A stretch of DNA of 64,000 nucleotides from Bacteroidota bacterium (GTDB lineage Bacteria; Bacteroidota; Rhodothermia; Rhodothermales; UBA10348), in assembly GCA_029262855.1 (NCBI GenBank), contig JAJCYP010000076.1, forward strand, positions 4,784 to 68,783. The letters are read 5' to 3'. A program made the translations under genes and the position numbers. How positions within the stretch are numbered: the stretch's first letter is position 1; every line of letters begins with the position of its first letter. The notes beneath the pieces were generated by a model. It ran no database searches and was not told the origin of the DNA. It saw nothing but the letters and a program-made list of their open reading frames with translations. Of this stretch, positions 2,366 through 20,724 are shown one piece after another.

Positions 2366-2538
2366 CGGTGAAGAGGGCGAATGAACGGGTATGCAGGGAC
2401 GCTCGGTTGCATCAACGCTTCTCCCCGATCACCGTTCGCCCGCCCGCCGTTCTTTGGAAGCCCCAACCCGAACCTGCCCATTTCTTCACGCCTGGACCGG
2501 TTGACTCCCAGGCCGGCTGCCGTAATTTCTTGGCTGCT

Positions 2539-2611
<73 letters not shown>

Positions 2612-2618
2612 CCCACAG

Positions 2619-2657
2619 ATTCCCGTAACTGATTGCATGGCTTTTGGTTACGGGAAT
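2619..2657. other. 11-bp perfect stem hairpin (ATTCCCGTAAC...GTTACGGGAAT) right after the tRNA
   Basis: Inverted repeat read directly from the sequence, with a 17-nt loop and no clear U-tract. It may be a tRNA terminator or processing structure, or the edge of an island insertion site. Confidence 0.35.
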
Positions 2658-2680
2658 GTTAGTTTGGGGCGCGGGGTTCC

Positions 2681-2830
2681 CTACCGCGTCTTGGCTCCTT
2701 CCCAGACCACGGTGGCGTCGTACCCGATCTGCTGAATCGCTGCAACGAGTTGGTCGTTCGCGGCGGTCTCATGCTGGAGTTCTTCCAAAAGGTCTTTCCA
2801 TTCGTGTAGACGAATACAGGACGATGACAT
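2681..2830 (-). pseudogene. Remnant in-frame fusion mini-ORF (49 aa): ArsR-family regulator N-terminus joined to a MerT-MerP-like C-terminus
   Basis: Translation is MSSSCIRLHEWKDLLEELQHETAANDQLVAAIQQIGYDATVVWEGAKTR*. Positions 2686-2744 match the 3' end of the gene at 18191-18249. Positions 2743-2835 match the 5' end of the regulator gene at 19078-19175, at about 93% identity. The junction lies at the microhomology CAAC-GAG. Confidence 0.6.
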
Positions 2831-2914
2831 GGCGATTAGTTAGGGCGTGGGCTGGCACTTCGCCTTCCGGTGACTCATATTCGGGGAGTCGCGCGATGAG
2901 TCAACCCTGGTGGC

Positions 2915-3838
2915 ATGGAGCAGCGAGTTTGTACTGGAAATGTAGCGCGATTGGCCGTCGGTTTCCTTCTCGCGTCGGTGGGAGCAGGATGTGGTGGGAA
3001 TCAGAGCGTCCCTCAGGTCGACTTCATGAGAGCCGAGGTGGAGCGGCCAGCCTCCGCGCCCGACAAGGAGCGTCCGCTGACTATGGCGGTTTCCGCGATG
3101 ACGTCGCCTCGACAGACTCTTCGCTACTACGACCAGATAGCCCTGGCCATCTCAACCGATCTGGATCGCCCGGTGCAACTGGTCCAGAGGCGCACCTACC
3201 AAGAGGTCAACGACCTCCTCCGGACCGGCCAGGTCGATGTGGCCTTCATCTGCTCTGGCGCCTACGTCGCTGCCCGGGAGGAATTTGACCTTGATCTGCT
3301 GGCCATCCCGCAGATAAATGGGCGCACGACGTACCGGTCCTACATCATCGCGGGGCCTGGCGTCGAGGGCGAGCGCTTTGATGACCTCAAGGGTCGGTCC
3401 TTCGCATTCACGGACCCGTTGTCGAACACCGGGTATCTGTATCCGATGTCGCGACTTGCCGATTCAGGCGAGAGCGCTGAGGTCTTTTTCACCGAGACCC
3501 GATTCACTCACGCGCACGACTACTCGATTCGCGCGGTGCGTCTCGGGACCGTAGATGCAGCGGCGGTGGAGTCACCGGTCTTCGAGTTCATGCGAAAGTC
3601 CGCCCCGGAGGAATTGGCAGGGATCCGTGTGATCGAGATCTCTCCAGAATACGGAATGCCGCCGGTGGTCGCGCCGGCCTCATTGGCGATTGAGGAGCGA
3701 GTGGCCCTGCGGCGTGTCCTGCTGAGAATGCATGGTGACTCACTCGGCCGAGCCGCGCTTTCCGCGTTGCACATCGACCGTTTCCGCGAGGGGGATCCGG
3801 CCGCGTACGACGGGATCCCTGCCCTGCCTGGATCATGA
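2915..3838 (+). CDS. PhnD-like periplasmic substrate-binding protein; lipoprotein-type signal; AioX/ArxX-like sensor partner
   Basis: The 307-aa ORF begins MEQRV...LAVGFLLASVGAGCGG (signal peptide plus Cys). The body resembles phosphonate/phosphite-binding PhnD-family proteins. Its stop overlaps the start of the kinase gene (ATGA). Confidence 0.65.
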   Translation: MEQRVCTGNVARLAVGFLLASVGAGCGGNQSVPQVDFMRAEVERPASAPDKERPLTMAVSAMTSPRQTLRYYDQIALAISTDLDRPVQLVQRRTYQEVNDLLRTGQVDVAFICSGAYVAAREEFDLDLLAIPQINGRTTYRSYIIAGPGVEGERFDDLKGRSFAFTDPLSNTGYLYPMSRLADSGESAEVFFTETRFTHAHDYSIRAVRLGTVDAAAVESPVFEFMRKSAPEELAGIRVIEISPEYGMPPVVAPASLAIEERVALRRVLLRMHGDSLGRAALSALHIDRFREGDPAAYDGIPALPGS

Positions 3839-5352
3839 GCGAAGGACGAAAACGGCTGCACATCCCGATTTTTTGGAAAATTAGCCTGGCGATCGTCTTC
3901 GTGGTCGCGGCTTTCGGATCGGTCAACCTCTACCTGATCCGGCAGAGGGTGACCGACACCGTGATCAAGCAGGCGGTCTACCGGGTCTCCACGCAGGCCG
4001 CTACGTTGGCGGAGTTGCTGCAAAAGGCTCTGTTGTACGATGACCTCATCGAGGTTCGCGAGCAGTTGGTGGACGTCGTTCGGGTTGACTCTACCCTGCA
4101 CTACGCTCTCGTTCTGGGTGCGCACGGTCGAGTGCTCGCGCACACCTTCGAACGGGGAGTACCGTCTGGCCTACCAGAGACCATCCGCGACTCCGATACG
4201 GCCACCGTCTTTCGGCGGACAGACACGGACGAACGGCTGGTCAATGTAAGTGCACTCATTCTGGGCGGACGCCTTGGAGAAGTCCACGTCGGGATGTCTT
4301 TGACATCTATCAACCGGCTTTCGGATGTCGTCCTCCAGACGTTCCTGCTCATGATAGCCGCTTTCCTCGCCACCGGGCTCGGCGGAGCGCTGTTGTTTGC
4401 CCGCTACCTGACGAATCCGGCAAAACGGATCGCGGAAACGGCATCATCGATTCGGCTCGACGAGCTTGGACAGGGCCGCCCTCCAAGTGTTCGGATCCGC
4501 ACGGGGCTTACGAGGGTGCTCCCAGGCGTTCCGCGGGTGGTAGACGAGATGGACATACTCGCTGACCGGTTCAACGAAATGTTGGAGCGACTCGACGGGG
4601 CCTACGCAGAACTCACTGTCGCCCAGGCCATGGCGTTGCGCTCTGAGAAGCTCGCGACAATCGGCACCCTGGCCGCTGGCATCGCCCATGAAGTGAACAA
4701 CCCCGTTGCAGGGATTCGAAACTGCGTTCGACGCATGCGCGAAAACCCCGAGAACGAGGAGCAACGTCAGAGGTACCTGAGTTTGATGGACCGCGCAGCC
4801 GAGCGCATTGGTCGGGTCGTGAGTAGCCTGCTACAGTTTTCCAGAATCCAGGACCAACCATACGCGCCGGTTTCCATCGGGGACGTGGTGGAGCGTGCGA
4901 TGGTTCTCGTGGTCCATCAACTTGAACAGAGCGCCATCTCGGTATCGAAGCGACTGGCCAAGGACGCTCCCATGGTGATGGGTAACGGCGGTGAACTGGA
5001 GCAGGTGGTGGTCAACCTCCTGGTTAACGCGATACATGCAACCGAGGACCGCAGACTGGCAAACGGCACGTTGGACACTCCTTCAAGTAGCATAATTGCT
5101 TCGGTCCGCGAGGCTGGGACAAACGTGCTATTGACCATCGAAGACCAAGGCGTGGGGATATCCGAGGAAGATCTGCAAAGCGCGTTCGATCCGTTCTTCA
5201 CTACGAAAGACTCCGAGAGGGGGACTGGGCTCGGCCTCGCGGTTTGTCGCAAGATTGTGCAGCAGCACGGCGGGAGGATTTCGCTCCGGAATTCTCATCC
5301 GCACGGCGCTGTCGCGGAAGTACTGATTCCGAAGATGAAGGCTAGCGCGTGA
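3835..5352 (+). CDS. sensor histidine kinase with periplasmic loop, HAMP, HisKA, HATPase; AioS/ArxS-like
   Basis: Two predicted TM helices flank a periplasmic domain of about 130 aa. H-box AHEVNNP, G-box DQGVGI and G2-box GTGLGL are present. It overlaps both neighbours, so translational coupling is likely. Confidence 0.8.
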   Translation: MSEGRKRLHIPIFWKISLAIVFVVAAFGSVNLYLIRQRVTDTVIKQAVYRVSTQAATLAELLQKALLYDDLIEVREQLVDVVRVDSTLHYALVLGAHGRVLAHTFERGVPSGLPETIRDSDTATVFRRTDTDERLVNVSALILGGRLGEVHVGMSLTSINRLSDVVLQTFLLMIAAFLATGLGGALLFARYLTNPAKRIAETASSIRLDELGQGRPPSVRIRTGLTRVLPGVPRVVDEMDILADRFNEMLERLDGAYAELTVAQAMALRSEKLATIGTLAAGIAHEVNNPVAGIRNCVRRMRENPENEEQRQRYLSLMDRAAERIGRVVSSLLQFSRIQDQPYAPVSIGDVVERAMVLVVHQLEQSAISVSKRLAKDAPMVMGNGGELEQVVVNLLVNAIHATEDRRLANGTLDTPSSSIIASVREAGTNVLLTIEDQGVGISEEDLQSAFDPFFTTKDSERGTGLGLAVCRKIVQQHGGRISLRNSHPHGAVAEVLIPKMKASA

Positions 5353-6680
5353 TGTCTCAGAAGCTGATCTACGTCGTCGATGACGAGGAAATCATTCGCC
5401 TGACATTGGCGGATGACCTGGCGGACGCGGGTTTCGAGGTTGAGGCGTTTACTGGTGCACGCGACTGCATGGCAGCGGCAACCGCTCGTCGGCCCGACGC
5501 AGTCGTGAGCGACGTCCGTATGCCGGGCATCGACGGCATGGCCCTGCTCAGGCGATTGAAGGAGTTGCATCCGGAGACCTGCGTTATTCTAATGACCGCA
5601 TTCGGTACCGTCGACACTGCCGTTGAGGCGATGAAGGCGGGAGCATTCGATTACGTCACCAAGCCCTTCGACCTCGACGAGCTCCTGATCCTCTTGTCCC
5701 GCGCCTTTGAGTTAGTCGGCAGCCGAAAGGAAATCCGTAGCCTCCGAGACCGATTGGGCGAGAATCATTCGCCAGAGTCCTACCTGGGCTCCAGCAAGAC
5801 GGCGGCGGAGACACGACGTCTTCTGCAGGAAGTGGCGGTCACCGAGGCGACCGTCCTCCTTGTTGGTGAAACCGGAACCGGCAAAGAACTGGCCGCCGGC
5901 GTCATTCATCACAGAAGCGGGCGTGCCTCCTCGCCCTTCATTCGAGTGAGTTGCGCCGTGCTTTCCAGGGAGGTATTCGAAAGCGAGCTGTTCGGCCACG
6001 TCAAGGGGGCATTCACCGGTGCCGAAAGGTCCCGCGGAGGACGATTTCAGGCAGGGAACGGGGGAAGCGTGCTGCTGGATGATATCGATGACATTCCACT
6101 CGACCTTCAGGTCAAACTACTTAGGGTACTTCAGGAACGAGAGGTAGAACCCGTCGGGGCGAGCCATCCTGTGCCGATAGACGTCCGAGTGATTGCCGCT
6201 ACGAAGAAGGACCTCGGCGAACTGGTCCGCCAGGGAAGTTTTCGGGAGGACCTGTACTACCGACTCAACGTGCTCCCGGTGGTTCTGCCTCCCTTGAGGG
6301 AGCGCCCGGAAGACATCCCTGACCTGGTTTTTCACTTCGCACGACAGATGGGTTGCCGGGCGGACGCGTTCTCCGAACAAGCGATCGCACGCCTCTGCTC
6401 GCACGACTGGCCGGGCAACGTGAGGGAACTGCGCAATGCGGTCGAGAGGATGGTGCTACTATCTGGAGGCCGCTGTATAGATATCGACAGGGTCCCCAGC
6501 GAAATCTCCACCTCGACCGGCGCGGAACCCCGATCTCTTGAAGCGCGGGTGGCGGCATTTGAGCGTGGGCTCATCGAGCAGGCGCTCGATCGATCAGGAG
6601 GGAATCGCGCAGAGGCGGCTCGTTTCCTCCAAATTCCTGCTTCCACACTAAGGAGCAAGCTGGGCAAGCACGAGCTGTAG
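5352..6680 (+). CDS. sigma-54-dependent response regulator (NtrC family: REC + AAA+ + Fis-type HTH); AioR/ArxR-like
   Basis: Receiver domain (VVDDEEIIRL...DVRMPGIDG). Walker A GETGTGKE, the GAFTGA sigma-54 contact motif, and a C-terminal HTH. The ATG overlaps the kinase TGA. Confidence 0.85.
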   Translation: MSQKLIYVVDDEEIIRLTLADDLADAGFEVEAFTGARDCMAAATARRPDAVVSDVRMPGIDGMALLRRLKELHPETCVILMTAFGTVDTAVEAMKAGAFDYVTKPFDLDELLILLSRAFELVGSRKEIRSLRDRLGENHSPESYLGSSKTAAETRRLLQEVAVTEATVLLVGETGTGKELAAGVIHHRSGRASSPFIRVSCAVLSREVFESELFGHVKGAFTGAERSRGGRFQAGNGGSVLLDDIDDIPLDLQVKLLRVLQEREVEPVGASHPVPIDVRVIAATKKDLGELVRQGSFREDLYYRLNVLPVVLPPLRERPEDIPDLVFHFARQMGCRADAFSEQAIARLCSHDWPGNVRELRNAVERMVLLSGGRCIDIDRVPSEISTSTGAEPRSLEARVAAFERGLIEQALDRSGGNRAEAARFLQIPASTLRSKLGKHEL

Positions 6681-6860
6681 GATGCGCGAGGATTCGCGGT
6701 TACCCTCCAAATATCGCGCCCTTCCTCTTTGCCGAACCGACCTGCGAGATGGAGCTAAGTCGTGCAAACACATGCCCATGATGAGGTTACGTGAATAGCC
6801 TGGCCCCGATCGGTACGCGATTCGTTTGCGGGGCCAGTCCGAGTCATCTCTGCCGTCCTC

Positions 6861-7853
6861 ATGACACAATCGAAGCCCTCGCTCCAGGACCGTTTCGGAC
6901 GGAGGCACACGTACCTTCGCCTTGCGGTTACCGAGCGTTGCAACCTCCGATGCCAATATTGCATGCCGGAGGAGGGATCCCCCAAGCGCTCCACGAACGC
7001 CTACCTGTCCGATCACGAGATCCTGACGGCGGTCGCGGCACTTGCGAGGACCGGGGTTGACCGCGTACGGCTCACGGGGGGTGAGCCGCTGGTTCGAAAG
7101 AACGTTCTGACCCTCGCCAGGCAACTCCGCGCCTGTGAGGGCATTGAGTCGGTTCGGTTGACGTCGAACGGCCTGCTACTCGGTCGGCACCTGCCGGAAC
7201 TGTTAGAGTCCGGAATCGACACGGTCAACGTCAGTCTCGATACGCTTCGTCCGAAGCGCTTCGAGCATATCACCGGTGGCACGGGTCACTCCACGATCCT
7301 GAGAGCAATCGACGACCTGATCGCAACCGGTGTCGTTCGGACAAAAATCAACGTCGTGTTAATGGCCGGAGTGAATGATGACGAGGTCGAGGACCTCGTC
7401 GCGTTCGTCCAGGATCGTCCGGTCGACATACGGTTCATTGAATTCATGCCCTTCGTTCAGAACGGCTGGAGCAAGGATCGGTACGTAGCTGAGCACATCA
7501 TCGTTGAGCGGCTTCGGCGGCGGTTCTCACTGAAGGTGGCGCCCACCGCAAAGAACGACACAGCCGTGATGTACCGAATTGCCGGCCATAGCGGCCGCAT
7601 CGGGTTCATCTCATCTGTTTCCAGCCCGTTCTGTCGAAACTGCAATCGACTACGGATTTCGGCGACCGGCCAATTCAGATCCTGCCTGTTTGGTGCGCCT
7701 AGCCTGGACCTGCGGAGTTTGCTCCGAGGTGGTGGGGATGAGAACGTGATTACTTCGGCCGTGCGCGGCGCCCTGCTTGGCAAGCACTGGGCTCACGATG
7801 GAAGACGGTCCTCGTCCGAAGCGGGTGCCCCGATGATCGCGATTGGCGGCTAA
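6861..7853 (+). CDS. moaA: GTP 3',8-cyclase MoaA (radical SAM, molybdenum cofactor biosynthesis)
   Basis: N-terminal CNLRCQYC radical-SAM motif and TGGEPL. MoaA family length (330 aa). Confidence 0.85.
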   Translation: MTQSKPSLQDRFGRRHTYLRLAVTERCNLRCQYCMPEEGSPKRSTNAYLSDHEILTAVAALARTGVDRVRLTGGEPLVRKNVLTLARQLRACEGIESVRLTSNGLLLGRHLPELLESGIDTVNVSLDTLRPKRFEHITGGTGHSTILRAIDDLIATGVVRTKINVVLMAGVNDDEVEDLVAFVQDRPVDIRFIEFMPFVQNGWSKDRYVAEHIIVERLRRRFSLKVAPTAKNDTAVMYRIAGHSGRIGFISSVSSPFCRNCNRLRISATGQFRSCLFGAPSLDLRSLLRGGGDENVITSAVRGALLGKHWAHDGRRSSSEAGAPMIAIGG

Positions 7854-8098
7854 GACGGGCCCCCGCGGACAAGCCGCTGTCAGTTGACTCAGACGGGGGG
7901 CGGCCTCGACTGTTCGGGTCGGTGGGCGATCGCAGTGGTCTCTTCTCACAACCCAGCGCCGAGTCGGCAACCGGCGGGGTTTCGCTCGCACGACGCGAAA
8001 TCTCGCGCATGCATTTGGGTCAACCCCGAAAGCGATGACTGGATATGGGGTTGTAAAACATGGACTTGACGGTCCTTTCCGATTCACTCGGGCCCAAA

Positions 8099-8113
8099 CG
8101 GCACGCTGTTGGT
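8099..8113 (+). promoter_or_regulatory. weak candidate sigma-54 (-24/-12) promoter upstream of the porin gene
   Basis: CGGCACG-N4-TGGT, 55-70 nt upstream of the ATG at 8167. The -24 half matches GGCACG well. The -12 half reads GT instead of the near-invariant GC. Confidence 0.2.
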
Positions 8114-8166
8114 GAAGAGGCTGACGAACCCAAACGAGACTCTTCGCCTCACGACCATAGACAGAC

Positions 8167-9177
8167 ATGAAAACCAAATACGTCCTGTTTTCTCTGGCCC
8201 TGCTGATCACCCTGCCGGCAGTGGCGCAGAACACGAAGATCAGCGGTTACATGTTCGGCGACGCGTACTACGTGGCCGCGGCTCCCGACGAAGACCTCGA
8301 AGGTAGAAGCGGCTTCCAATTCCGCCGAATTTACGTGACCCTGGACAGCGGTATCTCTGAGAACTTCGATACGAGGTTCCGCATCGAGGCAGCACACCCG
8401 GGCGACTTCACCACCAAAGCCAAAATGACGCCGATCGTCAAGGACGCCTATCTCCGTTGGAAAAAATCGGGCCACTCGGTCTATTTCGGACTGTCATCCA
8501 CACCAACCTGGTCGCGTCTGGAGTCCTTCTGGGGGTTCCGGTCGGTTGAGAAGACCCCGCTGGACCTGTACAAGTACGGCTCCTCACGCGACTTCGGCAT
8601 CGCGGCCAAGGGTCCTCTCGGATCGAGTGGCCGGCTGTCCTACCACGCGATGGTAGCGAACGGATCGGGTACGTCCTCGGAGACCAATGACGGCAAGAAG
8701 GCGCTGCTCTCGCTGGCTGTCGAAATGGTTGATGGTCTCACCTTTGAGGCCTACGGTGATTTTGAAGGCCTCGAGGGCGACACGGACCGGTCGACGCTCC
8801 AGGGCGCGCTCATGTACGGCGCGGACTGGGGGCGCGTTGGGCTCAGCTTCGCCCGTCACTCCCGCGGAGTTGCGGATGCAGATGCGATGACATTCGATGT
8901 GGCATCGGCCTTCATTGCTGCCGCCGTGTCGGATCGCAGCGATGCCTTCGTCAGGGTCGATCATCAGTTCGATCCCAACCCGTCAGCTGCCGGGATCTCA
9001 TATGTGCCGTTCGCGACGGCCGATGCGACGACTTTCCTGGTTGCCGGACTATCGATCAAGGCCGCAGACAACGTCTTTCTCCAGCCGAACGTGGAGCTGG
9101 TCTCCTACAGCATGGACACGGGAGACGCCCCTGCCGCGACGGTCATCCCTCGAATCACGGTCTACTTCAAACACTAG
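8167..9177 (+). CDS. outer membrane porin (signal peptide, beta-barrel, C-terminal ...YFKH)
   Basis: Signal peptide MKTKYVLFSLALLITLPAVAQ. Amphipathic beta-strand pattern throughout. The C-terminus has an aromatic residue at position -3. Confidence 0.6.
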   Translation: MKTKYVLFSLALLITLPAVAQNTKISGYMFGDAYYVAAAPDEDLEGRSGFQFRRIYVTLDSGISENFDTRFRIEAAHPGDFTTKAKMTPIVKDAYLRWKKSGHSVYFGLSSTPTWSRLESFWGFRSVEKTPLDLYKYGSSRDFGIAAKGPLGSSGRLSYHAMVANGSGTSSETNDGKKALLSLAVEMVDGLTFEAYGDFEGLEGDTDRSTLQGALMYGADWGRVGLSFARHSRGVADADAMTFDVASAFIAAAVSDRSDAFVRVDHQFDPNPSAAGISYVPFATADATTFLVAGLSIKAADNVFLQPNVELVSYSMDTGDAPAATVIPRITVYFKH

Positions 9178-9228
9178 AAGCCTCGCCGTAGGGTCACATT
9201 AATACTTCGCATTGGGAGGTCAATCAGA

Positions 9229-10179
9229 ATGGATCCGGAAATTGTCTATAACGTCCAGCAGGGCTTCTTCTGGGACTGGAAGGTCGCACTAGACCTCTTC
9301 CTCGGAGGAGCCGGAGTCGGTGCCTTCCTCGTTTCCGTGGGCCTGTATGAGTTTTGGGGTCGGAAGTACAAGCGCATCCCGCAGACAGCGGCATTTCTTG
9401 CGCCGGTTCTGGTCGGCGTTGGGGTTCTCATACTGATGCTAAAGCTCGGGCGACCCTTCCACATTTTTGAGACGTTCATCAACTTCGCGCCAACAGCTCC
9501 TCTCTGGTGGGGAGGCGTGTTCCAGACGCTCTTTATCGCGGGAGCGTTGTGGTACGCGCTTCTCTGGAGGGACTTGGAGCCCAATCCCAAGCGTAGGAAG
9601 CTCGGCCTGGCCTTGACGCCCCTAGCGCTGATTGTGGGTGGTTATCACGGGATGCTGCTCGCGGTAATTCCAGCGCGACCGCTGTGGAATACAGGACCGA
9701 CTGTACTCGCCGCCCTCGCCGCGTTTGTGACCACCGGTATCGCGGCCGTCATGCTTGTGCACCTGATCCGGATGAAGCTCGGCGGCCGTCTGGCGGATCC
9801 AGAGCACGTGCAGACCTTCCTGACCGATCTGACTCCGGTCAGACATGTGCTTGTGGGCGGGCTGATTCTCCAGTTAGGGACCTTCTTTCTCTGGTGGCAG
9901 AGCCTTCGCTTCGGAGATCTCGCGGATCGAACGGCGCTCGCCGTCGCCAACGCGGGCTTCGGGCCGATGTACTGGTGGCTGGGGATTGGCGTGGGTCTTG
10001 TGCTCCCGATAATTCTGGGGGTCGCCGCGGTCTGGAAGGACAGCCCCGAATACAATCCGCGGCGCCTGGTCTGGACAGTCGGAGTCGCGAGTTGTTTGAT
10101 ACTCGTGGGGGGGTTCTTCTTCCGCCTTTCTGTCGTCCTTGCAGGGCAACTCAACCCGCTGTACGTCACGCTCCCGTAG
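9229..10179 (+). CDS. NrfD/PsrC-family membrane anchor subunit of a molybdopterin oxidoreductase (ArrC/ArxC-like)
   Basis: 316 aa, polytopic with about 8 TM helices, NrfD-like. SD-like GGGAGG upstream. Lies immediately upstream of the catalytic subunit. Confidence 0.7.
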   Translation: MDPEIVYNVQQGFFWDWKVALDLFLGGAGVGAFLVSVGLYEFWGRKYKRIPQTAAFLAPVLVGVGVLILMLKLGRPFHIFETFINFAPTAPLWWGGVFQTLFIAGALWYALLWRDLEPNPKRRKLGLALTPLALIVGGYHGMLLAVIPARPLWNTGPTVLAALAAFVTTGIAAVMLVHLIRMKLGGRLADPEHVQTFLTDLTPVRHVLVGGLILQLGTFFLWWQSLRFGDLADRTALAVANAGFGPMYWWLGIGVGLVLPIILGVAAVWKDSPEYNPRRLVWTVGVASCLILVGGFFFRLSVVLAGQLNPLYVTLP

Positions 10180-10186
10180 AGAAGCC

Positions 10187-12763
10187 ATGATTAACCAAAA
10201 TGATATCACCATGACCGGGAAGGGTCTCTCCCGCCGCAGCTTTCTTAAGCGGACGAGTTGTGTTGGCGGGCTCGCGATTATCGGCGGTTCCCCGCTTTTG
10301 ACCTTCTTTACCGAGGACACCTCGGCCCAGCCCGCTGCACTCTTGGCTCGATGGGTAGCTTCTACCTGCCAGGGTTGCACAAGCTGGTGCCCAGTGGTGG
10401 TCAAAGTGGTGGACGGCCGCGTCGTCCACCTGGCTGGCAACCCTGAGTCGAAGGCAAACCATGGGAAAATCTGCCCACGGCCGAACCTCGCGCTTCAGCA
10501 GGTCTATGATCCGGACCGGCTGAAGACGCCCATGCGGCGCACGAATCCCAGGAAGGGACGGGACGAGGACCCGCAGTTCGTGCCCATCAGCTGGAATGAG
10601 GCCATGGGTCTTATCGCCGACAAAATGATGGAACTCCGCGAGAACGAGGAGACCCACAAATTCGTTTTCTTCCGGGGGCGCTACAGCTACAACCGCGACA
10701 TCATCTACAGCTCGGTGCCCAAGATATTCGGGTCGCCCAACGGCATTAGCCACTCTGCCATCTGTGCCGAGGCAGAGAAGTTTGGCGCCTACTACACGGA
10801 GGGCTACTGGGACTACCGCGACTACGACCTCGAACACACGCGATACGTGCTGTGCTGGGGTGCCGATCCGCTCTCATCAAACCGTCAAGTCCCGCACGCC
10901 ATCAACATTTGGGGCCATGTTCGCGACCGCGCAGAGATTGCTGTCATTGATCCTCGACTCTCAGCCACGGCTGCGAAAGCAAACGAGTGGCTCCCCGTAC
11001 TTCCCGGGGAAGACGGTGCCTTGGCTGTGGCCATGGCACATGTCATCTTGCGGGAGGGCCTCTGGAGCCGGGAGTTCGTGGGCAACTTTGCGGACGGAAC
11101 CAACCGGTTCCTCCCCGGCCAGACCGTGGACGAGCAGACCTTCGAGGAGATTCACACCAACGGCGTCGTGCGCTGGTGGAACCTGGAACTGAAGGATCGG
11201 ACGCCCGAGTGGGCGGAGACCCAGTGCGGCATTCCGGCAGACCAGATCCACCGTGTGGCAACCGGATTCGCGAAGGCGGCGCCAGCTGCCATCAGTTGGG
11301 TGTCTCCCGGCGCATCCATGCAGGCCAGAGGCGGGTATGCCGCCCTTGCAGCTCACGCCTTGAATGGCCTGGTCGGGTCCGCCGACAGTCAAGGCGGCAC
11401 CGTCCAAAAAACCAAGGTGCCAGCAGATGCCCTGCCCGACTTTTCGGCCTACCAGGACGACTTGGCCAAGAAGCTGTCAAAGAAACCGAAGATGGATCGG
11501 CGGGGCAGCCTTTCATTCCCAGCGCTTAATGCTGGAAAGAGCGGTGGTGGCGTCGTAACAAACAACGCGGCCGACTCCATTCTGAACGAGGATCCCTACG
11601 AGATCAAGGTGGCGATTGCCAACTGGGCCAACTTCGCCTTCTCGTGCTCGGGATCGGACCGCTGGGAACGTGCGCTCTCGAAACTGCCGTTCTTCGTGCA
11701 TATCACGACAAACCCGTCAGAGACCAGTCATTTTGCGGATATCGTACTCCCGGCGGCCCACCAGCTCTTCGAGAAATGGAGCTTCCTCAAATCGAAGCAG
11801 AACCTGCACGGCTACGCTAGCCTCACACAACCCATGATCGAGCCTCTCTGGGACGTCCGTCAGGACGAAACGGAGGTGCCCTGGTTGCTGGCCGAGGCGC
11901 TCGCGGAGCGCGGGTTCGACAACATGCTACGGTATTTCCAGGAGGCTTTTGCCGATCCCGAGACCGGGCAGCATCCAAGGACCAGCGCCGAGTTTGCCCT
12001 GACGTCCACGAAGATGTTCACCAGCCCGTGCTGGCATTCGGCCCACAAGGACTACGGAAAGTATGGGGACGCTCTGAACGGCTGGGACGACTTCGTGAAG
12101 AAGGGTGTGTGGAACTCGCACCGATTTGAAACGGGGAAGACGTGGGGCAAGTTCGGCACCGTCACGGGTCGCTTCGAATTCTACAGCGAAACACTGAAGA
12201 AGGCGCTCCAGGGCCACGCCGACAAGCACGGGGTGGGAATCGATGACGTGCTGGCGGCGACCAACTACACCGCTACCGGCGAGTTGGCCTTCTTGCCGCA
12301 TTTCGAGCCCGCGCTGCGGTGGGGCGATCCGTCGGAATTCCCGCTCATCTTCTTCGAACACCGGAGCCGTCTGAACCGCGAGGGTCGCTCGGCGAACTGC
12401 ACCTGGTACCAAGCCCACAAGGACGCTGACCCGGGCGACGAGAACTGGGACGATGTGCTGAAAATGAACCCGGTCGACGCGGAGCGACTCAATCTCACAG
12501 ACCGCGCAATGGTGCGGGTGGTTTCGACCACGGGTGAGATCACCGTAAGGCTGAAGCTATGGGAGGGCGTCCGCCCGGGCACCGTGGCTAAGTGCTACGG
12601 ACAAGGCCACTGGGCCTATGGACGAGTCGCGGCCACCGATTTTCAGCGGCGCATCCCTCGCGGCGGGAACAACAACGTGATCCTTCCCGCCGAGTACGAG
12701 CGGTTGAGTGGCTCGACCGCCCGCCACGGCGGCGTCGCTCGCGTAAAGGTCATCGCTGCATAA
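10187..12763 (+). CDS. molybdopterin (bis-MGD) oxidoreductase catalytic subunit, TAT-exported; Psr/Phs/Arr/Arx clade (candidate ArrA/ArxA)
   Basis: Twin-arginine leader SRRSFLK. N-terminal [4Fe-4S] motif C-X2-C-X3-C-X27-C (CQGCTSWC...27...C). About 860 aa. Followed by Fe-S and TorD subunits. The ATG at 10187 is preferred over the upstream ATG at 10139. Confidence 0.8.
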   Translation: MINQNDITMTGKGLSRRSFLKRTSCVGGLAIIGGSPLLTFFTEDTSAQPAALLARWVASTCQGCTSWCPVVVKVVDGRVVHLAGNPESKANHGKICPRPNLALQQVYDPDRLKTPMRRTNPRKGRDEDPQFVPISWNEAMGLIADKMMELRENEETHKFVFFRGRYSYNRDIIYSSVPKIFGSPNGISHSAICAEAEKFGAYYTEGYWDYRDYDLEHTRYVLCWGADPLSSNRQVPHAINIWGHVRDRAEIAVIDPRLSATAAKANEWLPVLPGEDGALAVAMAHVILREGLWSREFVGNFADGTNRFLPGQTVDEQTFEEIHTNGVVRWWNLELKDRTPEWAETQCGIPADQIHRVATGFAKAAPAAISWVSPGASMQARGGYAALAAHALNGLVGSADSQGGTVQKTKVPADALPDFSAYQDDLAKKLSKKPKMDRRGSLSFPALNAGKSGGGVVTNNAADSILNEDPYEIKVAIANWANFAFSCSGSDRWERALSKLPFFVHITTNPSETSHFADIVLPAAHQLFEKWSFLKSKQNLHGYASLTQPMIEPLWDVRQDETEVPWLLAEALAERGFDNMLRYFQEAFADPETGQHPRTSAEFALTSTKMFTSPCWHSAHKDYGKYGDALNGWDDFVKKGVWNSHRFETGKTWGKFGTVTGRFEFYSETLKKALQGHADKHGVGIDDVLAATNYTATGELAFLPHFEPALRWGDPSEFPLIFFEHRSRLNREGRSANCTWYQAHKDADPGDENWDDVLKMNPVDAERLNLTDRAMVRVVSTTGEITVRLKLWEGVRPGTVAKCYGQGHWAYGRVAATDFQRRIPRGGNNNVILPAEYERLSGSTARHGGVARVKVIAA

Positions 12764-12784
12764 CGGACCAAGGAGATACAAGAA

Positions 12785-13477
12785 ATGGCAAAGCGATATG
12801 GCATGGTGATCGACCTCCACAAGTGTGTGGGGTGTGCGGGTTGCGACATTGCCTGCAAGTCCGAGAACAACGTTACGGACGGTTTCGCGTGGTCCAACCA
12901 CATTTTGGAAACCCACGGTACCTTTCCCGATGTTCAATTCCGGTACATCCCGACGCTGTGTAATCACTGCGAGGACGCGCCGTGCGTGGCGAACTGTCCA
13001 ACCACGGCGATGCACAAGTCGGAGGACGGGCTGACACTCCACGATGCTTCGAAGTGCATTGGCTGCCGAGCATGCCAGGTAGCATGTCCCTACGGCGTAA
13101 TCTACTTCAATGAGAAAGCGCCTCATCCGCGCTTCATGGAAGACGACGAGGCCCTGATCCCAGGAGTTACGTCAACCGGGCAGGAGACTGCCGAGGCATC
13201 CGGAGCTCCGATTCCATACTACAACCCGGCGCGGGCTGAAACATATCCGGACATCCGACCGAAGGGGATTGTAGAGAAGTGCACGTTCTGCGACCACCGG
13301 CTTGCCAAAGGGGAGTTGCCCGCCTGCGTCGATGCATGCCCGGCCGATGCCCGTCTATTCGGTGATCTGGATGATCCGAATAGCGCTCCGGCCCAAGCGC
13401 TGGCCAAGCACGATTCCGATGTGCTGAAGCCAGAGCAGGGCACGAAGCCTCGCGTTTTCTACATTCGCGACTACTAA
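12785..13477 (+). CDS. 4Fe-4S ferredoxin-type electron-transfer subunit (PsrB/ArrB/NrfC-like)
   Basis: Four Cys clusters: CVGCAGCDIAC, CNHCEDAPCVANCP, CIGCRACQVACP, CTFCDHR..CVDACP. Strong SD AAGGAGA upstream. Confidence 0.85.
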   Translation: MAKRYGMVIDLHKCVGCAGCDIACKSENNVTDGFAWSNHILETHGTFPDVQFRYIPTLCNHCEDAPCVANCPTTAMHKSEDGLTLHDASKCIGCRACQVACPYGVIYFNEKAPHPRFMEDDEALIPGVTSTGQETAEASGAPIPYYNPARAETYPDIRPKGIVEKCTFCDHRLAKGELPACVDACPADARLFGDLDDPNSAPAQALAKHDSDVLKPEQGTKPRVFYIRDY

Positions 13478-13490
13478 CAAAGAGGTTGCC

Positions 13491-14117
13491 ATGGAGGAGT
13501 CCGCTGTCGAAACGGTTGTGCTGGATCAGGCCAGTCTTTTCTTCGCCTTGGCGCGCGCACTCGAAGAACCAAGGAAGTGGGGTGATGATCTCCCCTCAAT
13601 CATTCGCGCAGGGCTGGGTACAGGCCTCCCGCCCCTATCGACGCTCGGAGAGCGGCTGGCCGTCGAAGCCGGTGAGGCGCTTTCCGAGAGGGAGCAGATG
13701 TCGATTGAGCACGCCAGGTTGTTTGTGGGTCCGTTCGAAATAGTCGTCCCTCCCTGGGCGTCGCTTTATCTGGAAAAGGACGCCAGGCTGATGGGCGAGA
13801 TCAGCCAGCAAGCGGCGCGTGCTTACGCCGAGGCTGGGCTCGCGCCGGCGGCCGACCTCAGGGAGGCGCCGGACCATGTAACGCATGAATTGGAGTTCAT
13901 GTACTACCTGGCCTTTCAGGAGGCGACCGACAAGGACGGCGTCTGGCACGCCAGGCGGGCCGCCTTCTGGGTATCCCATTTGGGCCGGTGGCTGCCGCAA
14001 CTCGCCACCAAGCTCGCGGAAGCGAGCACTCACCCGTACTATGAGTCGCTGGCCGCTGCCTTGGCAGTGATCTGCCGTCGCATGGACCTCCTCTTTACCG
14101 ATGCTACAGAGGCGTGA
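13491..14117 (+). CDS. TorD/DmsD-family redox enzyme maturation chaperone (ArrD/ArxD-like)
   Basis: 208 aa, TorD-like length and composition. Sits directly after the Fe-S subunit. Confidence 0.6.
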   Translation: MEESAVETVVLDQASLFFALARALEEPRKWGDDLPSIIRAGLGTGLPPLSTLGERLAVEAGEALSEREQMSIEHARLFVGPFEIVVPPWASLYLEKDARLMGEISQQAARAYAEAGLAPAADLREAPDHVTHELEFMYYLAFQEATDKDGVWHARRAAFWVSHLGRWLPQLATKLAEASTHPYYESLAAALAVICRRMDLLFTDATEA

Positions 14118-14482
14118 AGGGGGGTCAGGCCGAATTTAAAGCGCTTTTAATCTCGCAATGCACTATGTCTCAACTCCCTCCGCCTCCCTCCGCCTACAAC
14201 CAGTTCGTGGACCGCTATCCGGATCTTGAGAGAGCTTGGGAGAGCATGGCCAAGGCTGGCACAGATGGCCCGCTCGACGCCCGGACTCAGCGTCTTATCA
14301 AACTTGCCATTGCTGTTGGTGCCATGAGAGAAGGGGCTGTCCATGCGAGTGCCCGAAAGGGTGTCGCGATGGGCATCGAGGCCAGCGAAATGGAGCAGGT
14401 AGTAGCGCTGGCCGCGAGCACGCTGGGAATGCCCTCTACGGTCGCGGCCTTTAGCTGGGTACAAGACGTCCTGAAACCCTAA
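14114..14482 (+). CDS. carboxymuconolactone decarboxylase / AhpD-like family protein
   Basis: AhpD-like core of about 110 aa. Its start overlaps the TorD stop by 4 nt. An alternative start is MSQLPP at about 14165. Confidence 0.5.
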   Translation: MKGGQAEFKALLISQCTMSQLPPPPSAYNQFVDRYPDLERAWESMAKAGTDGPLDARTQRLIKLAIAVGAMREGAVHASARKGVAMGIEASEMEQVVALAASTLGMPSTVAAFSWVQDVLKP

Positions 14483-14564
14483 GCGGCGTTGGTACTCGGC
14501 GTGGTCATCATGGTCGCGTTGGTCATGGTTCAGATCCCCAACGACATCACGTCTGGGCTTGAGC

Positions 14565-14584
14565 GGGACCTTTTGGTCCTTTTC
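14565..14584 (+). terminator. rho-independent terminator (GGGACC-TTTT-GGTCC + TTTT)
   Basis: GC stem followed by a T-tract, between the convergent AhpD-like and arsA genes. Confidence 0.5.
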
Positions 14585-14600
14585 GCCTGCCTGGTGGTTG

Positions 14601-16445
14601 TTACCCACGGTCCAGGAAGACTGGCGATGGGAGAATAGCTCGCTCGCCTCGTTTGCCAAATGCCTGGGCCTGTGGCCCGAGCGCCACGGAGAGATCACCC
14701 ACATACTCGGTTAGAGCGTCAACGCCGGACAGTTCCTTTGCCATCCAGGGCACCAGAAAGGTCCGTGTCGCATGCGTCTTGGCTACCAACTGAATTTGGC
14801 GTATCTCCGCCGCTGCCCGCGCCACGAGCAGCTTGTCCGTCGGCGACGCCGCAGCGAGGCTCTGGTTTATGACCCAGGCATACGGCGTGATGCTGGCGCG
14901 ACGGAGGTCGGCTTGCAGGCCTGCCGCCTCGAGGACAGGTGTCGTCTCAGGTAGTGTGACGATCAGCAGCTTGGTGTATGCGGGATCCTGCAGGCGCATC
15001 AGTGGGGTGGTGGCCCTTCCAGCCAGGCCGCGGGAGTTGCGCTCGACCTCTCGGTGGTAGGCGCCTGTCTGATCCAGCAGCAGCAGAGTGTGACCTGTTG
15101 GAGCGGTATCCAGCACAACGAATCCGCGCGCCGCTTCTCGCACCAGGTTCGAAAAGGCATGGAACACCGCCACTTCCTCGGTGCACGGGCTTCGGAGGTC
15201 CTCCTCGAGAAGCTTCTTGGCGTCGTCATCCAGATCCTTTCCTTTGGTGGCAAAGACGCGATCCGTGTACCTGCGAACCTCCTCCGCCGGATCAATGCGG
15301 CTCACGGTCAATCCTGGAAGGGAGCCCTTGACTGTCTGGACCAGGTGGGCGGCGGGATCGGTTGTAGAGAGATGCACGGTGTGGCCGTGCCTGGCCAACT
15401 CGACTGCCACCGCAGCGGCTATCGTCGTCTTGCCGACTCCTCCCTTTCCCATCACCACCACAAGTCCTTTTCCGGCGGCCTCGATATCCTGAACAAGGTC
15501 CGCGAGGGACGGGAGCTGCGGTGGCGCGGGAGGTTGGGCGGTGGCGGCTGGGCCGCCTGATACGCCAGACGCCAAGGCCCTCAGATGGGCGAGGCCGACC
15601 AGGTTGTGCGGCTGCAGTGGCACCGTATCGATGGGCAGTGACCGGAGTTCGGAGGGCAAGTTGTCCATCGCCGCCACCTGCCTGCGCTGCATGCCGGCGG
15701 CAAGTGGATCAGTCGACTCCGTGAGTGAAAAGACACCGTTGACCACGAGCCGCTGGCTCAATATGCCGAGATCTGCCAGCTCGTGGGCGGTCCGGGCGGC
15801 CTCGTTGAGAGCAGCCGGTTCGGGTCGGGTGACCAAGACCAGCGTCGTCGTCGCGGGATCGCGCAGCGAGTCGACGGCGGCGGCGTACTGTACGCGCTGA
15901 GACTGGAGTCCAGAGGCGGGGCCAAGGCACGATGCCCCGTCTGGGTTCGTGTCAATGAAATCGCCCCAGGCTGCGGGCAGTTGAAGCAGACGGAGTGTGT
16001 GTCCGGTCGGCGCGGTGTCGAAGACCACGTGGTCGAAGTCCTCCATCAGCGAGGCATCCGTCAGCAGCCGGGTGAAGGCATCGAACGAGGCGATCTCGGT
16101 TGTACAGGCGCCAGACAGACTTTCGGTGATCTGCTCAATAGCCGCAGGTGGGAGGAGCTGTCGAACGGGTTCTATCACGCGGTCACGATAGGCCTGAGCC
16201 GCTGCTTCCGGATCGATATTGACTACGTCAAGAAGCGGCACGCCCGACACACTCCGTACCTCGTGAGTGACCTCCGTCTCAAGCACCTGACCCAGATTGG
16301 ATGCAGGGTCGGTCGAAACCAGCAGCACGCGATGACCCTGGTCTGCCAGGGCAACAGCCGTAGATGTGGCAAGAGTAGTCTTGCCAACGCCGCCCTTGCC
16401 GGTGAAGAAAAGGTATCTCGTGGGCGATGTGATGAGAGTACGCAT
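14601..16445 (-). CDS. arsA: arsenical pump-driving ATPase ArsA (two homologous halves)
   Basis: Two P-loops GKGGVGKTT (the N-half reads MRTLITSPTRYLFFTGKGGVGKTT), DTAPTGH motifs in both halves, about 614 aa. Start taken at the internal ATG at 16445 that precedes the P-loop. Confidence 0.9.
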   Translation of the reverse strand: MRTLITSPTRYLFFTGKGGVGKTTLATSTAVALADQGHRVLLVSTDPASNLGQVLETEVTHEVRSVSGVPLLDVVNIDPEAAAQAYRDRVIEPVRQLLPPAAIEQITESLSGACTTEIASFDAFTRLLTDASLMEDFDHVVFDTAPTGHTLRLLQLPAAWGDFIDTNPDGASCLGPASGLQSQRVQYAAAVDSLRDPATTTLVLVTRPEPAALNEAARTAHELADLGILSQRLVVNGVFSLTESTDPLAAGMQRRQVAAMDNLPSELRSLPIDTVPLQPHNLVGLAHLRALASGVSGGPAATAQPPAPPQLPSLADLVQDIEAAGKGLVVVMGKGGVGKTTIAAAVAVELARHGHTVHLSTTDPAAHLVQTVKGSLPGLTVSRIDPAEEVRRYTDRVFATKGKDLDDDAKKLLEEDLRSPCTEEVAVFHAFSNLVREAARGFVVLDTAPTGHTLLLLDQTGAYHREVERNSRGLAGRATTPLMRLQDPAYTKLLIVTLPETTPVLEAAGLQADLRRASITPYAWVINQSLAAASPTDKLLVARAAAEIRQIQLVAKTHATRTFLVPWMAKELSGVDALTEYVGDLSVALGPQAQAFGKRGERAILPSPVFLDRG

Positions 16446-16482
16446 GGCGGGCACCAAGGGTGTTTCGTCGATCAGTCGTGGA

Positions 16483-16872
16483 TCAGCAGCAATCCGAACC
16501 GCTGTCCCCACAGCACGTCTCGGAGGTGACTTGCGCCGGGGTCTCCCGTCCACTGGCCCTACCGGACGGGCCGAATTGCAGGAGATGCGCCATTTCCACT
16601 AGGGACGGATGGCACCCCCGACTTACGATGAGACCATCCACGAGGAGGAGTGGCAGAACATCCATCCCTTCTGTGGTGATGGTCTGGTAAACCAGCGGAT
16701 GATTGACGAACGCGTCGGGGTTCGTGGCGAGGTTGAATCGTGATACTTCCGTGCCGAGGGCGGCCACCGATTTCAGGTCGGCGGCAAACTGAACCAGAAC
16801 GGGATCCGGATCACTTCCGCAAAGGCCAGTGGAGCAGCACATGGCAGGTTCGAATACCTGGAGATGAGGCAT
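16483..16872 (-). CDS. arsD: arsenic metallochaperone / trans-acting repressor ArsD
   Basis: MPHLQVFEPAMCCSTGLCG is the ArsD Cys12/Cys13/Cys18 motif. 129 aa. Start is the internal Met of the ORF-track ORF. Confidence 0.85.
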   Translation of the reverse strand: MPHLQVFEPAMCCSTGLCGSDPDPVLVQFAADLKSVAALGTEVSRFNLATNPDAFVNHPLVYQTITTEGMDVLPLLLVDGLIVSRGCHPSLVEMAHLLQFGPSGRASGRETPAQVTSETCCGDSGSDCC

Positions 16873-16904
16873 GATGAGTAGCGATTGGTGATACGCAGTT
16901 CCAA

Positions 16905-17276
16905 CTATTGTTGGTCGTGGAGGGAAGCCAAAGCGACCTCGGGCATGCAGCGAGCCTTCTCGCCCCTGTCCAGTACTTGTCCCAAAATGGAATCCAGGCC
17001 TTCTCGGAGGCGGAGTAGTTGCTGGCGGTCCAGGCAGTAGCAAGTTCGCTGCCCGTCCGTGTGGCTCACCACGAGGCCGGCCTGCTTGAGCACCTTGAGG
17101 TGCTGCGAAACAGTTGATTGCGCCAGAGGCAGCGCCTCAACGAGTGCGCCACACACGCATGCGTCTGCTTCCGCCAGCTCACGCAGTATGGCGAGCCGGG
17201 CCGGGTGGGCCAGGGCCTTCGCGCCTTCGGCTATACCACCGAGCAAATCGGGAAAAAGGTCAGCTTTGGACTGCAT
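16905..17276 (-). CDS. arsR: ArsR/SmtB-family metalloregulator
   Basis: HTH with the metal-binding CVC (ADACVCGALVEAL). First gene of the arsR-arsD-arsA operon. Confidence 0.85.
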   Translation of the reverse strand: MQSKADLFPDLLGGIAEGAKALAHPARLAILRELAEADACVCGALVEALPLAQSTVSQHLKVLKQAGLVVSHTDGQRTCYCLDRQQLLRLREGLDSILGQVLDRGEKARCMPEVALASLHDQQ

Positions 17277-17341
17277 CGTTGTGTAGTATTAATCGTTTAT
17301 CTAAGTTATACGATAGAATACGATAGCATCATGCACTCTGG
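17277..17341. promoter_or_regulatory. divergent promoter region between arsRDA and the phosphoesterase gene; direct repeat TACGATAG-AA-TACGATAG
   Basis: 65-nt AT-rich intergenic region containing ATTAATCG and a tandem 8-mer. This is the likely ArsR operator region. Confidence 0.4.
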
Positions 17342-18121
17342 ATGAAAATAGCCTTCTTCAGCGACGTTCACGCCAACCTACCAGCCCTGGAGGCGGTGTT
17401 CGCATCAATCGACGAGCATGCGCCCGACGCGGTCTATTGTCTGGGCGATCTCGTGGGTTACGCCCCCTGGCCCAACGAAGCAGTAGCGGCCGTTCGGGCG
17501 CGCCGAATTCCAACGCTGTCGGGCAACTATGATGAGGGAGTAGGTGTGAACTCTACTGATTGTGGATGTGCCTACAAGACAGAGGAGGACGAATTTCGCG
17601 GCGCTCAGTCGATTGCGTACACAAACCGGGTCGTGACTGCCGAGACTCGCCGGTATTTGCGTGGCCTGGCCAGCCACCAACGTCTGGAGATGCTCGCACC
17701 CCGAACGAGGGGCGCCCAGCCGTTCAGGCTCCTCATGGTTCACGGGAGTCCGGTCAAGATCAATCAATACCTCTTCGAAGACCATCCAGACAAGAGCCTG
17801 CTGCGTATGATGAGAGGAGCGGCCGCCGACCTTATGCTCATGGGACATACGCACAAGCCCTGGTACCGGGCCATCCACGACGAGGCGGAGGGTCGTTTTC
17901 GGCATGCCATCAACATCGGATCGGTGGGGAAGCCAAAAGACGGTGACCCTCGAGCCTGCTGGCTACTGCTGGACTTACCGGCTGAGGCCTCATCGGCCGA
18001 CGAACACGCGTTCGAACCGGAGTTCATTCGGGTCGACTACGACGTTGAGGTAGCCGCCCGCGCCGTAGAGGAAAGTCCGCTGCCAGACGCCTTCGCCGAC
18101 ATGCTTCGAAGAGGGCGCTGA
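17342..18121 (+). CDS. calcineurin-like metallophosphoesterase (MPP superfamily)
   Basis: FSDVHAN and GDLVGYAP motifs (DXH...GDXXD), plus GHTH later. Confidence 0.75.
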   Translation: MKIAFFSDVHANLPALEAVFASIDEHAPDAVYCLGDLVGYAPWPNEAVAAVRARRIPTLSGNYDEGVGVNSTDCGCAYKTEEDEFRGAQSIAYTNRVVTAETRRYLRGLASHQRLEMLAPRTRGAQPFRLLMVHGSPVKINQYLFEDHPDKSLLRMMRGAAADLMLMGHTHKPWYRAIHDEAEGRFRHAINIGSVGKPKDGDPRACWLLLDLPAEASSADEHAFEPEFIRVDYDVEVAARAVEESPLPDAFADMLRRGR

Positions 18122-18190
18122 TTCATCGTGACGAGCAACCCGAATACGGGGAGCGTGTCACGCGCGCCAGAGGTAAGAAACAGTCTTTCG

Positions 18191-19164: not shown

Positions 19165-19285
19165 GGCGACTGGGGCCTGAGTAGTGAGCAATAACTGTTG
19201 GGTTATGTTCGAAACTATCTCTGGTTTCGGCTCGTTGGTATCGAACTATAACGAATTTGTTACATAACCAAATAGCGAATGTTCC
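19165..19285. promoter_or_regulatory. divergent mer promoter/operator region with inverted repeats
   Basis: GGTTATGT (19201-19208) pairs with ACATAACC (19262-19269). There are TTCGAA-containing boxes at about 19208 and 19242. Confidence 0.35.
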
Positions 19286-20722: not shown

Positions 20723-20724
20723 CG

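Follow-up and report, generated by a model that had tools for sequence, protein, structure and literature searches.

A chimeric open reading frame beside tRNA-Ala as a probable relic of a second mercury-resistance gene pair in a Rhodothermales metal-resistance island

A chimeric reading frame and an intact mer module

We analysed a 64,000-nucleotide (nt) stretch of DNA, hereafter the window, from a Bacteroidota bacterium of the order Rhodothermales (assembly GCA_029262855.1, contig JAJCYP010000076.1, positions 4,784 to 68,783 of the forward strand). The window is part of an NCBI metagenome-assembled contig of 68,783 nt. Next to a tRNA-Ala gene it carries a minus-strand open reading frame (ORF) of 150 nt at 2681..2830, which encodes 49 amino acids (MSSSCIRLHEWKDLLEELQHETAANDQLVAAIQQIGYDATVVWEGAKTR) and is made of the ends of two genes of a mercury (mer) module. 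We regard this ORF as the probable relic of a second such module. The intact module of the window, which lies 15.5 kb away, consists of merA, an ArsR/SmtB-type regulator gene, and a MerT-HMA (MerTP-type) fusion gene. The features and their coordinates are listed in Table 1.

A BLASTN search with positions 2600-2900 as query against the whole window returned two significant matches. Positions 2685-2749 match 18195-18259 (60/65 identical, E = 4e-22), and positions 2741-2835 match 19075-19169 (88/95 identical, E = 1e-35); all other matches were at chance level (E above 0.6). The same two pairs were recovered in a separate repeat search of the window. Codon mapping assigned the ORF to residues 1-30 of the regulator, followed in frame by residues 179-197 and the stop codon of the MerT-HMA protein. 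Both segments are 92-93% identical to the ends of the intact module, with 12 differing positions in total, and the relic ends in TAG where the intact MerT-HMA gene ends in TGA. The offsets of the two matches (15510 and 16334) place 824 bp of the intact module (18251-19074) between the parental segments; these are absent from the relic.

The original prediction had described a composite of the 3' end of a MerT-MerP-like gene and the 5' end of an ArsR-type regulator gene at about 93% identity, and the two matches agree with this description. The ORF also reproduces exactly the 49-residue translation that had been proposed, with start, stop, and frame kept. The proposed deletion scar stands in that two segments are joined in frame; its size has to be corrected from 830 to 824 bp, and the coordinates, which pointed to the right region, were off by 1-6 bases.

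The AlphaFold model of the intact regulator (predicted local distance difference test, pLDDT, 79) has an N-terminal arm at residues 1-11, a helix at residues 12-23, and the next helix at residues 26-34. The regulator-derived part of the relic retains the arm with Cys5, the helix 12-23, and the start of the helix 26-34. Of the regulator, the relic lacks the winged-helix domain (HTH_5, residues 40-86), Cys99, and the CVC motif at residues 57-59; of the MerT-HMA protein, it lacks all MerT helices (residues 2-93) and, within the HMA domain, the GMTCETC loop (residues ~129-135). The 49-residue sequence had no Pfam or NCBIfam match. On its own, the product is predicted to form a single helix over residues 8-47 (pLDDT 84, single-sequence prediction).

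In the intact module, the regulator and MerT-HMA genes overlap by 4 nt and are divergent from merA. The MerT-HMA protein scored 112 bits against the model MerTP_fusion (NF033556), under the cutoff of 180. Boyd and Barkay (2012, PMC3466566) described mer operons with ArsR-like regulators in the Bacteroidetes, the Actinobacteria, and the Archaea, and the intact module (18191-20722) is of this known type, with merA divergent from an ArsR/SmtB-type regulator that is followed by a MerT-HMA transporter. The relic, in contrast to these operons, is without merA, operator, helix-turn-helix domain, and transporter helices.

The regulator belongs to a mer-linked ArsR family common to Salinibacter and Rhodothermales, in which the N-terminal Cys and Cys99 are conserved and the CVC motif is invariant, while the first 30 residues are poorly conserved outside the close family. 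An N-terminal Cys combined with CVC in helix 3 is the arrangement of the thiolate metal site (alpha3N) of CadC. The parent regulator has both of these elements and thus resembles CadC in sequence, and the family looks like a CadC-like thiolate sensor recruited to mercury clusters. It differs from CadC-type sensors in its location in mer clusters; the relic, which has the arm only, cannot form the site by itself.

Relatives of the 49-residue protein were sought in several collections. A phmmer search of 1.84 billion representatives gave no small homologue; the only matches were a spurious repeat protein and a MerTP of 197 residues, whose positions 167-197 align with query residues 19-49. When JGI metagenomes were scanned with the back-translated query, no other copy of the fusion appeared, and all matches were MerTP-like C-termini at 40-44% identity. 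The exact 49-residue sequence was absent as a called gene product from a gene-position collection. Exact look-ups of the intact regulator, the intact MerTP, the full-length ThrA, and the hybrid kinase listed in Table 1 also gave no record and hence no independent assembly that would confirm the left flank of the relic or the right edge of the island. The widespread small-protein family that the original prediction had named as an alternative did not materialise in the phmmer and JGI scans, and an independent small-protein family was ruled out by the lack of homologues of similar length in both.

Table 1. Features of the window at and around the chimeric ORF, the intact mer module, and the borders of the inserted segment.
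Feature	Position	Strand	Basis
tRNA-Ala (anticodon GGC), core gene	2538..2615	+	ARAGORN; Rfam RF00005, 70 bits, at 2539-2611
Hairpin, 11-bp perfect stem, 14 pairs with wobble, then UGUUAGUUU	2619..2657	+	Fold -25.9 kcal/mol, z -4.7 versus shuffles
Insertion of ~42 kb relative to related Rhodothermales, boundaries approximate	2658..44400	.	Synteny with L054, L055, L057
Chimeric ORF, probable relic of a second regulator-MerTP module	2681..2830	-	Translation, codon mapping, family and homologue searches
MerT-HMA-derived part: residues 179-197 and stop; end of HMA helix 2 and last strand	2681..2740	-	BLASTN, codon mapping
Junction zone, Leu-Val-Ala codons common to both parents	2741..2749	-	Codon comparison
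Regulator-derived part: codons 1-30 and 5 nt upstream of ATG (TCGCC)	2741..2835	-	BLASTN, regulator model, family alignment
Flank without homology to the mer promoter/operator; now upstream region of arxX-like gene	2836..2914	.	Alignment versus shuffles
MerT-HMA (MerTP-type) fusion gene, 197 residues	18191..18784	-	Pfam MerT 2-93, HMA 125-186
ArsR/SmtB-type regulator, 127 residues, N-terminal Cys5, CVC in helix 3	18781..19164	-	Pfam HTH_5 40-86, NF033788, family alignment
Divergent merA/regulator intergenic region (promoter/operator)	19165..19285	.	Conserved in L036 cassette, absent from relic
merA, mercuric reductase core, 478 residues	19286..20722	+	TIGR02053 MerA 489.8 bits, cutoff 454
Reg_prop/Y_Y_Y hybrid histidine kinase, core gene	44401..48390	-	54-56% identical to kinase by tRNA-Ala in L054, L057
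Response regulator	48395..49159		52-58% identical to relatives
DUF5916 gene	49772..51985		69-71% identical to relatives
Esterase gene	52067..52918		Orthologue of relatives' gene

Junction, edges, and divergence of the two copies

A related cassette from a JGI metagenome (JGI 3300082555, Ga0675947_000963; L036) was used as control and outgroup. It has a regulator of 135 residues, a MerTP of 197 residues, and a divergent merA.

At the join, both parents encode Leu-Val-Ala in the same codon phase, at residues 28-30 of the regulator (DQLVA|LSS) and residues 176-178 of MerTP (EELVA|AIQ). On the coding strand the three codons read CTC GTT GCA in the relic, CTC GTG GCA in the regulator of the window, CTT GTT GCC in MerTP, and CTC GTT GCG in the L036 regulator, so that the perfect core of the microhomology is GTTGC. 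The product is in frame because the microhomology coincides with a tripeptide shared in phase. The original prediction had placed the deletion at a CAACGAG microhomology; a short shared sequence does lie at the join, but it is not a perfect CAACGAG in the intact copy of today, and the perfect shared core is GTTGC.

The same site differs between assemblies. In a comparison of the window with two Logan assemblies, there were only three differences over 3.3 kb, and these are clustered at 19075-19079 (regulator codons 29-30; L051 2465-2469, L052 674-678), exactly at the microhomology of the deletion. Codons 29-30 are GTGGCA in the window, GCAGCG in the Logan assemblies (V29A), and GTTGCG in L036. 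The Logan allele converts TTGCGCTG to the perfect palindrome CAGCGCTG, as a quasi-palindrome template switch would, and 19075-19079 may be a local hotspot for replication template switching.

The flanks of the relic aligned with the flanks of the intact module no better than shuffled sequences did. On the stop side, the homology ends at the stop codon, with 0 nt beyond; on the ATG side, it ends 5 nt upstream of the ATG. The intact module is 86.5-88% identical to L036 from inside merA through the intergenic promoter/operator region (86.5% in this region) and both genes, and this identity stops exactly at the MerTP stop codon. For this one pair, the relic ends on the stop side where the module itself ends. 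The relic shares none of the intergenic region, and the alignments indicate that its other edge, 5 nt before the ATG, is a genuine second breakpoint (2835/2836), at which operator, promoters, and merA would have been removed. Because of this second breakpoint, which the original prediction had not noticed, a single 824-bp deletion cannot account for the whole structure.

The start of the arxX-like gene is now 84 nt from the ATG of the relic. A scan with the sigma-70 consensus, from which the promoters of this lineage may depart, found no sigma-70-like promoter in 2300-3100, and no Shine-Dalgarno-like purine run was found by eye in the 12 bases before the ATG (CTAACTAATCGCC). A tblastn search with MerA against the window recovered only the intact gene (19286-20719) and no fragment near the relic; further mer fragments were not found within the window. 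In L036, the region downstream of MerTP (1923-6017) encodes a thioredoxin-like protein, two HMA-domain proteins, and a second pyridine-nucleotide-disulphide oxidoreductase (454 residues); this extension is missing from the cassette in the window.

The relic is closer to the intact copy of the window (92-93%) than to L036 (90% and 83%). The differences between the relic and the intact copy were polarised with L036 as outgroup. Six synonymous changes (codons 5, 7, 8, 15, 35, and 49), two non-synonymous changes (R11W and K34Q), and a two-base change of the stop codon from TGA to TAG fall on the relic branch, and three synonymous changes fall on the intact branch. Given the codons of the inferred ancestor, a random non-stop substitution has a chance of only 24-29% of being synonymous, which gives a probability of 0.004-0.01 under neutrality for at least six synonymous changes among the eight coding changes on the relic branch. 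From this excess we infer that the source of the relic was still a functional, evolving gene pair during most of the time after the two copies separated; it would have been under purifying selection during most of its separate history, and the deletion would have come late. A 150-nt ORF stays open through eight random substitutions about 70% of the time, and for this reason the open state of the ORF carries no weight.

R11 is retained in the five closest regulators (P0004-P0008) and K34 in two related MerTP sequences with the same C-terminus (L036 and P0002). R11W and K34Q, at residues kept in the closest functional relatives examined, fit a relaxed constraint after the deletion; 6/8 of the changes are, however, synonymous, and two non-synonymous sites are too few to prove or date such a relaxation.

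A recent duplication was ruled out by the 12 differences and the polarised branch pattern, and the synonymous excess on the relic branch argues against a long neutral decay. In this respect the original prediction, which favored an older or differently sourced second cassette over a recent duplication, is supported by the test of the relic branch. A perfect identity over 41 nt (2685-2725 = 18195-18235) is found within repeats that are otherwise about 11% different (chance about 0.01), and this tract could be a crossover or gene-conversion tract between the copies.

The tRNA-Ala gene and the inserted segment

The tRNA-Ala gene is followed by a hairpin whose sequence is unique in the window and among all fetched loci. 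An Rfam search over 2300-3000 found only the tRNA. Two related contigs without the inserted segment (L054 and L057) have equally strong hairpins of different sequence 4-7 nt after tRNA-Ala, followed by U-runs, and the hairpin at 2619-2657 is most likely the terminator of tRNA-Ala. The tRNA gene and the hairpin with its 11-bp stem do lie beside the scar, as originally described from the sequence and now supported by ARAGORN, Rfam, and the computed fold. The suggestion that the hairpin marks an integration was rejected, since island-free relatives carry equivalent hairpins after the tRNA.

ThrA, encoded to the left of the tRNA, marks the organism as a member of the Rhodothermales and was used as synteny anchor. 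Its nearest named matches are 73-76% identical, and one Logan relative is 89% identical. The arxX-like protein, with its nearest matches in GTDB genomes only 43-46% identical (NC10, Desulfobulbaceae), gave no syntenic genome. The comparison was made with three contigs from two related Rhodothermales lineages (L054 and L055 from JGI metagenomes, and L057 from GCA_017643395.1). All three have the order thrA, about 250 nt with tRNA-Ala(GGC), Reg_prop/Y_Y_Y hybrid histidine kinase, response regulator, small gene, and DUF5916 gene, and the position and orientation of the tRNA relative to thrA are the same. Because the kinase abuts tRNA-Ala in these relatives and the orthologues are distant from it in the window, we conclude that an insertion of about 42 kb separated the kinase from the tRNA. 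With the hairpin as the most likely tRNA terminator, the island would begin between ~2658 and 2680.

Besides the relic, the intact mer module, and a DUF302 gene, the island carries an ArrA/ArxA-type molybdoenzyme cluster, a sensor set like arxXSR together with moaA, the genes arsA, arsD, and arsR, and a gene for a metallophosphoesterase. Three RND efflux systems and one two-component system also belong to it. A CusF-like gene accompanies the mer module in the annotation of L051 alone, a Logan contig nearly identical to the window. Pfam scans of ORFs between 2.9 and 63 kb, which covered those ORFs of at least 200 residues that were judged to be real genes and part of the shorter ones, found no integrase or transposase. 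The 3' end of the tRNA has no second match in the window, either as a 26-mer (up to 3 mismatches) or as a 16-mer (up to 2 mismatches), and the G+C content (0.59-0.69 throughout) has no step at 2.6 kb or at 44.4 kb.

The island is like other tRNA-associated genomic islands in that about 42 kb of accessory metal-resistance genes directly follow the 3' end of a tRNA gene, where the three comparison contigs have no such insertion, and unlike them in that no integrase, tRNA 3'-end repeat, or compositional shift was found. Of the original view of an island at the tRNA, the insertion itself is upheld by synteny; site-specific integration is not shown, as neither an integrase or transposase among the ORFs scanned nor a tRNA-end repeat in the window was found. 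The direct repeat of the tRNA 3' end that was to mark the island boundary was searched for in the window without success; an intact mer cassette at the tRNA-Ala site was likewise looked for in related genomes, and none was found.

Two gene clusters of the island deserve a brief description. Positions 2915-14117 hold an Arx/Arr-type arsenic redox cluster, which encodes a PhnD-type binding protein (closest GTDB relatives only 43-46% identical, from NC10 and Desulfobulbaceae), a histidine kinase, and a sigma54 response regulator (arxXSR-like), together with MoaA, an NrfD-like membrane subunit, and a protein of 336 residues without family match. The cluster also encodes an ArrA/ArxA-type molybdoenzyme of 874 residues (NF041714, 1125 bits, under the cutoff of 1600), an ArrB-type iron-sulfur subunit, and a TorD-like chaperone. 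At 23088-42053, three RND efflux systems (outer-membrane factor, HlyD-type adaptor, AcrB-type pump) stand in a row; in the ORF 29700..34214 (1504 residues), the pump is apparently fused to an outer-membrane factor domain.

History of the relic and rival explanations

The 49-residue ORF is probably a non-functional relic of a second ArsR-type regulator and MerT-HMA gene pair, at the tRNA-proximal edge of the ~42-kb metal-resistance island. Judged by its sequence, the relic most likely does nothing, as it is without a DNA-binding domain, metal-binding motifs, and a recognisable promoter. It fails every defining feature of a functional mer module and fits an ordinary gene remnant at an island edge. 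As in other gene remnants left by microhomology deletions in bacterial islands, its homology to functional genes elsewhere in the genome is truncated, its junction lies at a short shared sequence, and it has neither catalytic or binding domains nor a promoter and sits at the edge of a horizontally acquired region. It is unlike them in that the deletion spanned two adjacent overlapping genes and restored the frame, leaving a tidy ORF of 49 codons, and in that its divergence from the intact copy is mostly synonymous.

Two diverged regulator-MerTP copies bracket the 15.4-kb arx/ars segment (2836-18190), the left copy being without its middle and its promoter side. In the history that we favor, a complete second module would have stood beside the tRNA, about 7% diverged from the intact one and probably from another source, be it an earlier layer of the island or incoming DNA. 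Replication slippage or illegitimate recombination at the GTTGC/LVA site would then have deleted 824 bp. A separate rearrangement, possibly the arrival of the arx/ars segment, would have replaced everything upstream of position -5. By a possible alternative route, a circle carrying the arx/ars segment and a mer unit would have entered a resident mer unit by Campbell-type integration, which gives the same unit-segment-unit layout. The two short direct repeats could in principle support a rare deletion of the arx/ars segment by homologous recombination.

Several observations weigh against the reading as a relic. The ORF is intact in start, stop, and frame, and the synonymous excess would also fit selection on a small protein. 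The homology is nearly confined to the ORF (5 nt past the ATG, 0 nt past the stop), which is tighter than random breakpoints usually give. No genome with an intact second module at the site was found, and the order from cassette to deletion is a reconstruction. The left flank (tRNA, hairpin, and join at the relic stop) is present in the window contig only, and the promoter scan was of the sigma-70 type only.

Three other explanations were weighed against the relic. The ORF might be an assembly artefact, either a chimeric join of reads from two mer-module ends or a misjoin through the 41-nt repeat: the window comes from a metagenome-assembled contig, the Logan contigs of two runs break exactly within this exact repeat, and the left flank is without independent confirmation. 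However, two independent Logan assemblies (L001, SRR15505518; L002, SRR15505514) reproduce, at 99.95-100% identity, the junction together with the regulator-derived part and a right flank of 2.1 to 4.7 kb, and these runs also yielded the intact copy on contigs of its own (L051 and L052, at 99.8-99.9% identity with the window). A literature search turned up no paper on the SRA runs. Because both were assembled in independent Logan runs, the two copies are present side by side in the samples, and the fusion did not arise by chimeric assembly; moreover, with 12 differences, reads from the intact copy cannot build the relic. The breaks are the behavior of a k=31 de Bruijn graph at a 41-nt repeat: the contigs end within the identical stretch, two of them with the 30-nt overlap expected of such a graph. 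An artefact is largely excluded by the independent assemblies, and we consider its probability close to negligible. It is also unlikely that the ORF is templated filler, in which template switching of the type of microhomology-mediated break-induced replication or fork stalling and template switching (MMBIR/FoSTeS) copied two mer stretches while the tRNA side and the arx segment were joined, and a complete second cassette was never at the site. Homology restricted to two short, sharply ended blocks (60 and 95 nt), which meet at a microhomology, is what such copying would leave, and the clustered three-base difference at 19075-19079 between assemblies suggests a template-switch hotspot. Yet the blocks are 7-8% diverged with a synonymous excess, so that a recent copy of the present resident cassette cannot have served as the template; a foreign cassette, functional and already diverged, would be needed instead, and random switches do not predict edges that fall precisely on a stop codon and 5 nt ahead of a start codon.

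The intact ORF could also be read as a translated chimeric micro-protein that was born of the deletion and kept by selection, an amphipathic helix with a Cys arm that may affect the intact regulator or bind metal. Its ATG and stop are in place, and the two-base change from TGA to TAG still gives a stop; 6/8 coding changes are synonymous; Cys5, which is conserved in the family, is retained, as is the helix as far as the conserved LVA; the single helix is predicted with confidence (pLDDT 84); and the homology is trimmed almost exactly to the ORF. Against these points, the phmmer and JGI searches gave no homologous small protein, and the exact sequence is absent from the gene-position collection. 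There is no recognisable promoter and, by eye, no Shine-Dalgarno-like run, and R11W radically alters a residue that the closest functional regulators retain. Since about 70% of 150-nt ORFs survive eight random substitutions, since the time before the deletion accounts equally well for the synonymous excess, and since a single-sequence helix prediction is no evidence of function, we find a selected micro-protein highly unlikely. Its more specific form, a new translated helical protein of 49 residues kept for modulating the intact regulator 16 kb away, by competing for arm docking or the metal site, or for buffering Hg(II), is barely plausible. If the micro-protein reading were true, the locus would be a datable birth of a gene by fusion of two gene ends.

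As a relic, the ORF is itself of little weight, being one more decayed fragment at the edge of a genomic island, and its value is that of a history marker. In annotation, it is to be flagged as a remnant and not as a regulator or metal-binding protein. Short-read assemblies break at the locus because of the two short repeats; this explanation and the delimitation of the ~42-kb metal-resistance island at tRNA-Ala are the most useful by-products of the analysis. For the organism, the relic would mean that this Rhodothermales lineage held two mercury modules of different origin, that one of them was destroyed by a short-homology deletion and a second rearrangement, and that the metal-resistance region beside tRNA-Ala was assembled in more than one step.

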